A stretch of 8,520 bases of DNA from a virus (Duplodnaviria > Heunggongvirae > Uroviricota > Caudoviricetes): positions 1-8,520 of IMG/VR virus record IMGVR_UViG_2534681654_000003, one strand, 5' to 3'. Position 1 is the stretch's first letter. Every line of letters starts with the position of its first letter. Below the pieces are notes generated by a model that was not told the DNA's origin, searched no databases, and was given only the letters and a program-made list of their open reading frames with translations. The translations under genes were made by a program, and so were the position numbers. Of the stretch, positions 6,053 through 6,067 are shown one piece after another.

Positions 6053-6067
6053 GCGCTGACAAAGCGC
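6053..6067 (+). promoter_or_regulatory. nutL boxB, P22 type
   Basis: GCGCTGACAAAGCGC: 4-bp GC stem with loop UGACAAA, identical to the P22 boxB-left RNA as I recall it. Lies in the N leader. No convincing boxA found upstream. Confidence 0.7.

Follow-up and report, generated by a model that had tools for sequence, protein, structure and literature searches.

The early region analysed here raises the question of which N antitermination system it carries. By the window we mean the whole stretch of DNA that was analysed, 8,520 nucleotides long, whose plus strand corresponds, according to the ORF map and the annotation, to the leftward (pL) direction of a lambdoid early region. A reading made from the letters alone (in the following, the sequence-only reading) had described boxB hairpins with the same loop at both nut positions, and had assigned the antitermination module to the P22 type although it took the downstream genes to be lambda-type. 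The features to which we refer are listed in Table 1.

Table 1. Early-region features of the window and their positions
Feature	Position	Strand	Sequence, structure or evidence
Rightward intrinsic terminator	53-30	-	Terminator scan; downstream of tR1
DnaB-like helicase gene	348-1799	-	
O-like replication gene	1774-2673	-	
cII	2845-3141	-	Start at 3141
tR1 region	3142-3226	-	Between nutR and cII; hairpin UAUGCGUUUCCACGCAUA at 3197-3180
nutR, 46 nt	3272-3227	-	933W feature 'nutR': boxA-like sequence, spacer hairpin and boxB
nutR boxB	3241-3227	-	TCGCTGACAAAGCGA; UCGCU-GACAA-AGCGA
nutR spacer hairpin	3246-3257	-	GGAC-AUUC-GUCC; fold
Degenerate boxA	3264-3272	-	CGCUAUUUU; 7/9 match to CGCUCUUUA
cro	3280-3507	-	Stop at 3280
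pR promoter	3539-3566	-	Promoter scan; TTGCAA, 16-nt spacer, CATAAT; equivalent to the 933W pR feature
cI	3586-4293	+	Followed on this strand by three accessory ORFs, N, an unknown ORF, the gene at 7289-7600, cIII, kil, gam and the start of bet
Intrinsic terminator	4858-4878	+	7-bp stem, T6 run; cI/pRM operon, between the DUF3024 gene and the 177-aa ORF
pL promoter	5955-5983	+	Promoter scan; sigma-70-type, -35 TTGATA, 17-nt spacer, -10 CATTAT
nutL, 67 nt	6001-6067	+	933W feature 'nutL; putative N-utilization leftward': leader 5' segment CGCAUUACU, two spacer hairpins and boxB
nutL spacer hairpin 1	6009-6023	+	UCACC-AGGGC-GGUGA; in the minimum-free-energy fold
nutL spacer hairpin 2	6033-6048	+	GAUUC-GAAUAU-GAAUC; fold
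nutL boxB	6053-6067	+	GCGCTGACAAAGCGC; GCGCU-GACAA-AGCGC
Long-range stem in the N leader	6078-6225	+	GUGAACUUUGGGGUGUGGUG paired with CACCUACCACACCACCAAAGUUCAU; fold
N antiterminator gene, 127 aa	6233-6616	+	Pfam PF25694 N_peptide, E 2e-15; PHROG 271, anti-termination protein N-like
Intrinsic terminator in the pL operon	7248-7276	+	Terminator scan; 8-bp stem followed by a T7 run; downstream of N

Two boxB hairpins at the nut positions

The 13-nt core CGCTGACAAAGCG was found in exactly two copies in the window, at 6054-6066 (+) and 3228-3240 (-), the expected number being 0.01, and none of 200 shuffled sequences contained two or more copies. The RNA around each copy folds as a 5-bp stem with a GACAA pentaloop, with energies of -8.5 kcal/mol (z -3.2) for the leftward and -6.6 kcal/mol (z -2.7) for the rightward boxB. 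The two hairpins differ in the outermost base pair alone, which is G-C in nutL and U-A in nutR, a compensatory change. An Rfam scan of the window detected no nut or boxB family; its sole match was the translational thermoregulator of cIII (Lambda_thermo, RF01804), located around the cIII start at 7660-7718 (+) and scoring 88.5 bits (E 4e-21).

To place the leftward hairpin on its transcript, the pL leaders were compared. The leaders of the window, SPN9CC, g341c, P22 and VT2-Sakai all contain the motif TCAGCAGGACGC without variation, and it is present in those of lambda and HK620 too. Because this motif includes the nucleotide marked in the P22 record as the 5' nucleotide of the early left RNA (the A of ATCAGCAGG), the pL transcript probably starts at about 5991 (G5991 of GTCAGCAGGACGC), and boxB occupies +63 to +77, 166 nt upstream of the N start codon. 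The rightward hairpin lies between the cro stop and the cII start. Both hairpins sit at the canonical nutL and nutR positions, and each early transcript has its boxB, the leftward one in the N leader and the rightward one in the cro-cII interval, as in a lambdoid N/nut system. The sequences and coordinates that had been given for the two sites in the sequence-only reading proved exact, and the folds agree with them.

Identity with the nut sites of 933W and H-19B

Over 5750-6700 the window does not differ from phage 933W, and the same 100% identity holds for many other Stx1 and Stx2 phages. The nutL and nutR features of the 933W record (GenBank AF125520, 1999) map exactly onto the two sites, with 67/67 and 46/46 identical nucleotides, respectively. 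A second line of evidence came from the oligonucleotides published for the nutR of H-19B. All four (RS662-RS665) match the window exactly and tile 3201-3284 (84/84 nt); RS662, described as 'antisense to nutR boxA of H-19B', covers the degenerate boxA, and RS664, 'antisense to nutR boxB of H-19B', covers the rightward hairpin. Taking into account these exact matches and the published H-19B assays, 3241-3227 is the boxB that has been used experimentally, and 6053-6067 is its annotated nutL counterpart.

The published work on H-19B bears on the sequence studied here. Its nutR/tR1 is a Rho-dependent terminator that is read through by N. The nut site overlaps with rut, and Rho is hindered by N-NusA at nutR; in footprints with N and NusA/NusG the spacer and boxB were protected and boxA was not, and the spacer was protected by Rho as well. 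H-19B N was active in vitro with only NusA and NusG added (Sen laboratory), and point mutations in the region of its arginine-rich motif (R3H, S11F, R15C/P and R18P) abolished antitermination at nutR/tR1. The H-19B nutR site has been reported to contain two hairpins; in the window the spacer between the boxA position and boxB has dyad symmetries at both sites, one hairpin at nutR and two at nutL.

The H-19B N protein is 127 aa long and has the arginine-rich motif 12-RSRRRER-18. The N protein of the window, encoded by the first gene of the pL operon, agrees with it in length and in this N-terminal motif, and is 100% identical to the N of 933W. A phmmer search of solved structures with N gave no meaningful match, N peptides being too short.

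Everything that can be compared with H-19B and 933W (Neely and Friedman 1998, 2000; Plunkett et al. 1999) agrees with the window, and in comparison with 933W the surrounding mosaic alone differs. Phage 933W has lambda O/P-type replication genes, whereas the window has an O-like gene and a DnaB-like helicase gene; in the accessory region between cI and pL, 933W carries stk, whereas the window carries ORFs of 177 and 44 aa; and the gene at 7289-7600 resembles gene 17 of P22. We therefore have little doubt that the two sites are nutL and nutR of an N antitermination system of the H-19B/933W type, residing in a mosaic lambdoid (Stx-phage-like) prophage. The nut sites are not new: they are annotated in AF125520, and the identical nutR of H-19B has been footprinted and used in N assays. 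The result is an annotation of the 933W-type nutL, nutR and N in a new mosaic context, and adds little beyond what was known. The system matters in that Stx phages rely on N antitermination for delayed-early transcription and, by way of Q, in part for the expression of Shiga toxin.

boxA and the spacers

A boxA of the form CGCUCUU(U)A upstream of boxB, as expected in a lambdoid N/nut system, was not found. At nutR a boxA-like sequence, CGCTATTTTCACA at 3272-3260 (-), which includes CGCTATTTT, matches the consensus CGCTCTTTA in 7 of 9 positions. Upstream of the nutL boxB, scanning with the consensus revealed no boxA, the best 9-mer matching in 5 of 9 positions. In this respect the sequence-only reading, which had noted a boxA-like sequence upstream of nutR and none upstream of nutL, was borne out.

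The segment CGCATTACT (6001-6009), with which the 933W nutL feature begins at +11 of the transcript, was considered as a boxA candidate. It matches the consensus in about 4 of 9 positions, and was rejected because it aligns with the conserved 5' end of the pL leader (lambda CGCACTGAC) and not with the boxA of lambda or P22. The lambda counterpart of CGCAUUACU, the sequence opening nutL, is CGCACUGAC, located at the same conserved leader end. Lambda, P22, VT2-Sakai and HK620 have this conserved 5' segment plus a genuine boxA further downstream, and the Salmonella phages SPN9CC and g341c share with the window the nutL scaffold with two spacer hairpins and no boxA.

Of the spacer hairpins, the one at nutR is invariant across the window, VT2-Sakai, SPN9CC and g341c. 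Hairpin 1 of nutL is kept in SPN9CC and g341c, and among IMG/VR loci it varies mostly in the loop; in hairpin 2 the stems are kept in the relatives and the loop alone varies (GAATAT, AAATAT, AAGCAA, AAACAT, AGTGAT).

As H-19B/933W is an accepted member of the family despite its boxA, this element is a variable rather than a disqualifying feature. Antitermination by lambda N requires NusB and S10. For H-19B N, boxA, NusB and S10 are reportedly dispensable. The title of Neely and Friedman (2000) names a reduced Nus-factor requirement of H-19B N, and we infer that the missing or degenerate boxA reflects this reduced requirement.

Predicted antitermination and its terminators

The identity with the H-19B and 933W sites suggests the following mechanism. 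The pL transcript (starting at about 5991, +) and the pR transcript (-) would each carry a boxB with a 5-bp stem and a GACAA pentaloop; the arginine-rich motif (RSRRRER) at the N terminus of the 127-aa N protein would bind the boxB loop, and NusA would bind the spacer adjoining boxB. The C-terminus of N would engage RNA polymerase, which would thereby gain resistance, on the right against the Rho-dependent tR1 and on the left against intrinsic terminators, for instance that at 7248. In the literature on identical sequences, N-dependent antitermination at nutR/tR1 requires the arginine-rich motif. The nutL site presumably works in the same way; its GenBank label is 'putative'.

Two terminators had been proposed in the sequence-only reading as targets of N-dependent read-through, those at 7248 and 4858. 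The first is inside a 121-nt block that corresponds, at 99% identity, to lambda 33925-34045 in the ral-ea10 interval, and is a plausible natural target of N. The second was misplaced: it lies in the cI/pRM operon upstream of pL and is transcribed neither from pL nor from pR, and therefore cannot be a target of N. Rightward read-through would concern the Rho-dependent tR1 (3226-3142, -) and, beyond it, the intrinsic terminator at 53-30 (-). Since the 4858 terminator is only 7 nt before the ATG of the 177-aa ORF, this ORF is probably expressed from a promoter of its own or by transcription from pRM that passes the terminator.

An alternative with some support is that the hairpins serve mainly in another role and that loading of N is secondary. 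At nutL, boxB and the long-range stem would then, as in lambda, serve the translational autoregulation of N and the processing of its mRNA by RNase III, and at nutR the hairpins would chiefly occlude the Rho loading site. The leader has the structure for the former: the long-range stem is about 19 bp long and ends directly before the Shine-Dalgarno sequence AGGAGG, and the fold of 5991-6250 has an energy of -89.9 kcal/mol (z -4.16). The N leader of lambda has a counterpart stem, and the arms of the window stem resemble lambda CAAAGCAGAAGGCUUUGGGGUGUGUG. In lambda, this stem is an RNase III cleavage site at which translation of N is regulated. The role at nutR accords with the overlap of nut and rut in H-19B and with the hindrance of Rho by N-NusA. 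On the other hand, with the arginine-rich-motif mutants of H-19B N antitermination is lost also at a second terminator, one far removed from the nut site, which shows that modification of the polymerase is required and that occlusion alone is insufficient. Moreover, the same hairpin is kept at both nut positions, although nutL alone precedes N. As the main function such a role is unlikely, though well short of negligible; as an added function it would be compatible with N antitermination, which we take as the main explanation. Among the IMG/VR relatives the distance between boxB and the N start codon ranges from 143 to 457 nt.

Comparison with P22, lambda and phi21

The sequence-only reading had proposed an alignment of both sites with the nut sites of P22, lambda and phage 21, and in a comparison of the loops GACAA proved to be that of P22, unlike those of lambda and phi21. 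P22 nutL has the arrangement CGCTCTTTAAC-ttcgatgat-GCGCTGACAAAGCGC, and its boxB is identical to the nutL boxB of the window (GCGCUGACAAAGCGC) in 15 of 15 positions. The nutR boxB of the window matches P22 boxB-left in 13 of 15 positions, the two differences making up the compensatory outer pair. Both sites thus have the boxB of the P22-type class, a 5-bp stem closed by U-A with a GACAA pentaloop. The nutR boxB of P22 itself, ACCGC-CGACAAC-GCGGU, in which GACAA is flanked by a C-C mismatch, is unlike that of the window; hence the window carries the P22-left type of boxB at both positions.

In the structure of the P22 N-boxB complex (PDB 1A4T) the GACAA loop has a GNRA-like fold from which the C is looped out, contacting His7 and Arg11 of the peptide. 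We infer that in the window GACAA is likewise read in the P22 manner, with the C looped out. The positions of His7 and Arg11 align with Arg16 and Lys20 of window N; as the residues contacting the C are Arg and Lys here, recognition may differ from that in P22 in detail.

It could be supposed from the boxB that the module is literally that of P22, acquired by recent recombination from a P22-like Salmonella phage, with an N and nut sites orthologous to and interchangeable with gp24 and the P22 sites. The proteins do resemble each other, and the similarity of the arginine-rich motif and the C-terminus to those of P22, which had been noticed from the sequence, was confirmed by alignment with gp24: the two share the motif F-x-G-N-x-x-x-R-R-x-E-R and the C-terminus YAAG(Y/H)RKSKQ(L/I)TAR. 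The last 30 aa of N align with gp24 at 67% identity, and Pfam PF25694 takes in both proteins together with the N proteins of VT2-Sakai and HK620, lambda N being assigned to N36 (PF11438). In addition, the Salmonella phage SPN9CC, placed by its record in Lederbergvirus, the genus of P22, has an N protein 86% identical to that of the window. However, these last 30 aa are all that BLASTP aligned. In a global alignment N and gp24 are only about 39% identical, N being 27 aa longer, with about 30 aa in its middle part that gp24 lacks, and BLASTN gave no match to P22 anywhere in 5818-7188, the stretch with nutL and N, nor around nutR. The scaffolds differ as well: P22 has a canonical boxA (CGCUCUUUA) and unstructured spacers of 8-9 nt, whereas the window has spacers of 20-40 nt with hairpins and a boxA that is absent from nutL and degenerate in nutR. 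The unlike nutR boxB of P22 and the substitution of the residues contacting the looped-out C point in the same direction. A P22 origin of this kind is very improbable. The designation 'P22-type' holds for the boxB sequence and the Pfam family of N; given the identity of about 39% to gp24 and the lack of BLASTN similarity around nut and N, it is wrong for the module as a whole, which is the N-nut module of H-19B/933W and not that of P22.

With lambda the window shares the position of N as the first gene of the pL operon, nutL in the N leader, nutR between cro and cII, a boxB made up of a 5-bp stem and a pentaloop, and the long-range stem in the N leader. It differs from lambda, which has the loops GAAGA and GAAAA, a canonical boxA and an N of family PF11438. 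Phage phi21 has an N-nut system as well, but its boxB loop, for which the literature served as the source, is the hexaloop CUAACC and does not resemble GACAA. The N of HK620, a PF25694 member annotated as similar to the N proteins of H19B and phage 21, goes with a boxB that is unlike GACAA.

That the two matches are chance inverted repeats without function can be dismissed: short hairpins are generally common in DNA, but two copies did not turn up in any of the 200 shuffles, the copies occupy the canonical positions in both early operons, boxB is invariant across dozens of mosaics (see below), and experiments have been published on the identical nutR.

N type and boxB in related phages

The H-19B/933W assignment was followed into other phages by scanning IMG/VR with the N protein. 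The scan yielded 80 loci, all with an N 99-100% identical to that of the window, a sample too uniform to be informative for boxB covariation. The nutL boxB was exact in all 79 loci having upstream sequence, and the nutR boxB in all 73 loci in which a nutR was found. The surroundings were far from uniform: the 3' ends of cro belong to several unrelated families, and the pL regions differ, one being lambda-like. Among the 56 loci with at least 3.5 kb of sequence downstream of N, 28 had bet and gam, 16 had erf and 12 had neither. Because this N type occurs with lambda-type, P22-type or other recombination genes, the combination of a P22-type boxB with lambda-type recombination genes represents routine mosaicism. 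The pairing of N type and boxB is kept across many mosaics, and the neighbouring immunity and recombination modules are freely exchanged. The N-nutL segment is present at a coverage of at least 80% in 345 of 5,426 complete E. coli genomes.

Four phage records supplied the wider diversity of boxB. In SPN9CC the boxB sequences are GCUCC-GUCAA-CGAGC (nutL) and UCGCU-GACAA-GGCGA (nutR). Phage g341c, with an N 70% identical to that of the window, has CGGCU-GAAA-AGCCG and UCGCU-GAAA-AGCGA, a GAAA tetraloop and not GACAA. VT2-Sakai (N 40% identical) has UGGCU-GAAA-AGCCA and UCGCU-GAAA-AGCGA, and in HK620, whose N aligns in the last ~22 aa only, nutL and nutR have the same UCCCGC-CGAAAU-GCGGGA. Differing arginine-rich motifs of N thus go with differing boxB cassettes in a shared nut scaffold.

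In VT2-Sakai (Sp5), 3122-3262 (-) is nearly identical to the nutR-tR1 segment 3142-3285 (-) of the window. The two have in common the spacer hairpin GGACAUUCGUCC, the UACG following it, the UCGCU/AGCGA stem and the tR1 region. They differ in the loop, where GAAA and GACAA are distinguished by a single C, and in boxA, which is canonical in VT2-Sakai (CGCTCTTTG) and degenerate in the window. The VT2-Sakai N, 90 aa long in the aligned part (the annotated CDS begins further upstream), has the motif SRRRARR.

The boxA-less nutL scaffold carries GACAA, GUCAA or GAAA depending on the phage, each with a different arginine-rich motif in N. One might go further and regard boxB as a swappable specificity cassette in a conserved nut scaffold, so that the N of a co-resident Stx prophage might partly cross-activate early operons and hence toxin expression. 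Partial cross-activation is conceivable, as GACAA folds like a GNRA tetraloop with the C extruded, yet we put forward this proposal as a speculation of low probability. We know of no systematic test of cross-activation between the N proteins of co-resident Stx prophages.

Some details of SPN9CC may be added. Its arginine-rich motif differs from that of the window by two changes, N10T and S13A. In its nutR, GACAA is closed by a U-G pair, and the pentaloop of its nutL boxB (4883-4897), like that of the P22 nutR boxB (31954-31970), is flanked by a C-C mismatch.

Mosaic surroundings of the module

The view that the downstream genes are lambda-type was correct for cIII-kil-gam-bet, which BLASTN showed to be 97.7% identical to lambda, but does not extend to the gene at 7289-7600 (+). 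For this gene the Pfam match is GP17 (E 7e-56), superinfection-exclusion gene product 17 of P22. Its DNA is 83% identical to P22 gene 17, with blocks 98-99% identical to lambda on both flanks. The gene is a small P22-type patch within an otherwise lambda-type left arm.

No complete E. coli RefSeq genome and no INPHARED phage record covered more than 84% of the window. Between cI and pL (4354-5726, +), the accessory genes are unlike those of 933W. Among them is a gene for a DUF3024 protein with a match to PDC-S43, a defence-candidate family of PADLOC (E 5e-42), and downstream of it the 177-aa and 44-aa ORFs (PHROGs 2602 and 21154, function unassigned) replace the stk kinase operon of 933W. Phage SH2026Stx1 has the same accessory arrangement between cI and pL, with 99.4% identity.

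On the right side, a terminator-like hairpin of 12 pairs followed by a T run was found at 2869-2896 (+), antisense to the 3' end of cII. The DNA around it is 79% identical to the cII-O junction of lambda and 91% identical to the oop promoter/terminator region of P22; the hairpin and this likeness to the oop regions suggest a putative oop-like antisense RNA. Within the O-like gene, the direct repeats GTGGTAATTTGCTGGTAATCTGCTGGTACA at 2186-2286 (+) consist of two 35-nt copies with 94% identity, each containing the internal repeat GCTGGTAAT, and are probably origin iterons bound by the O-like protein.
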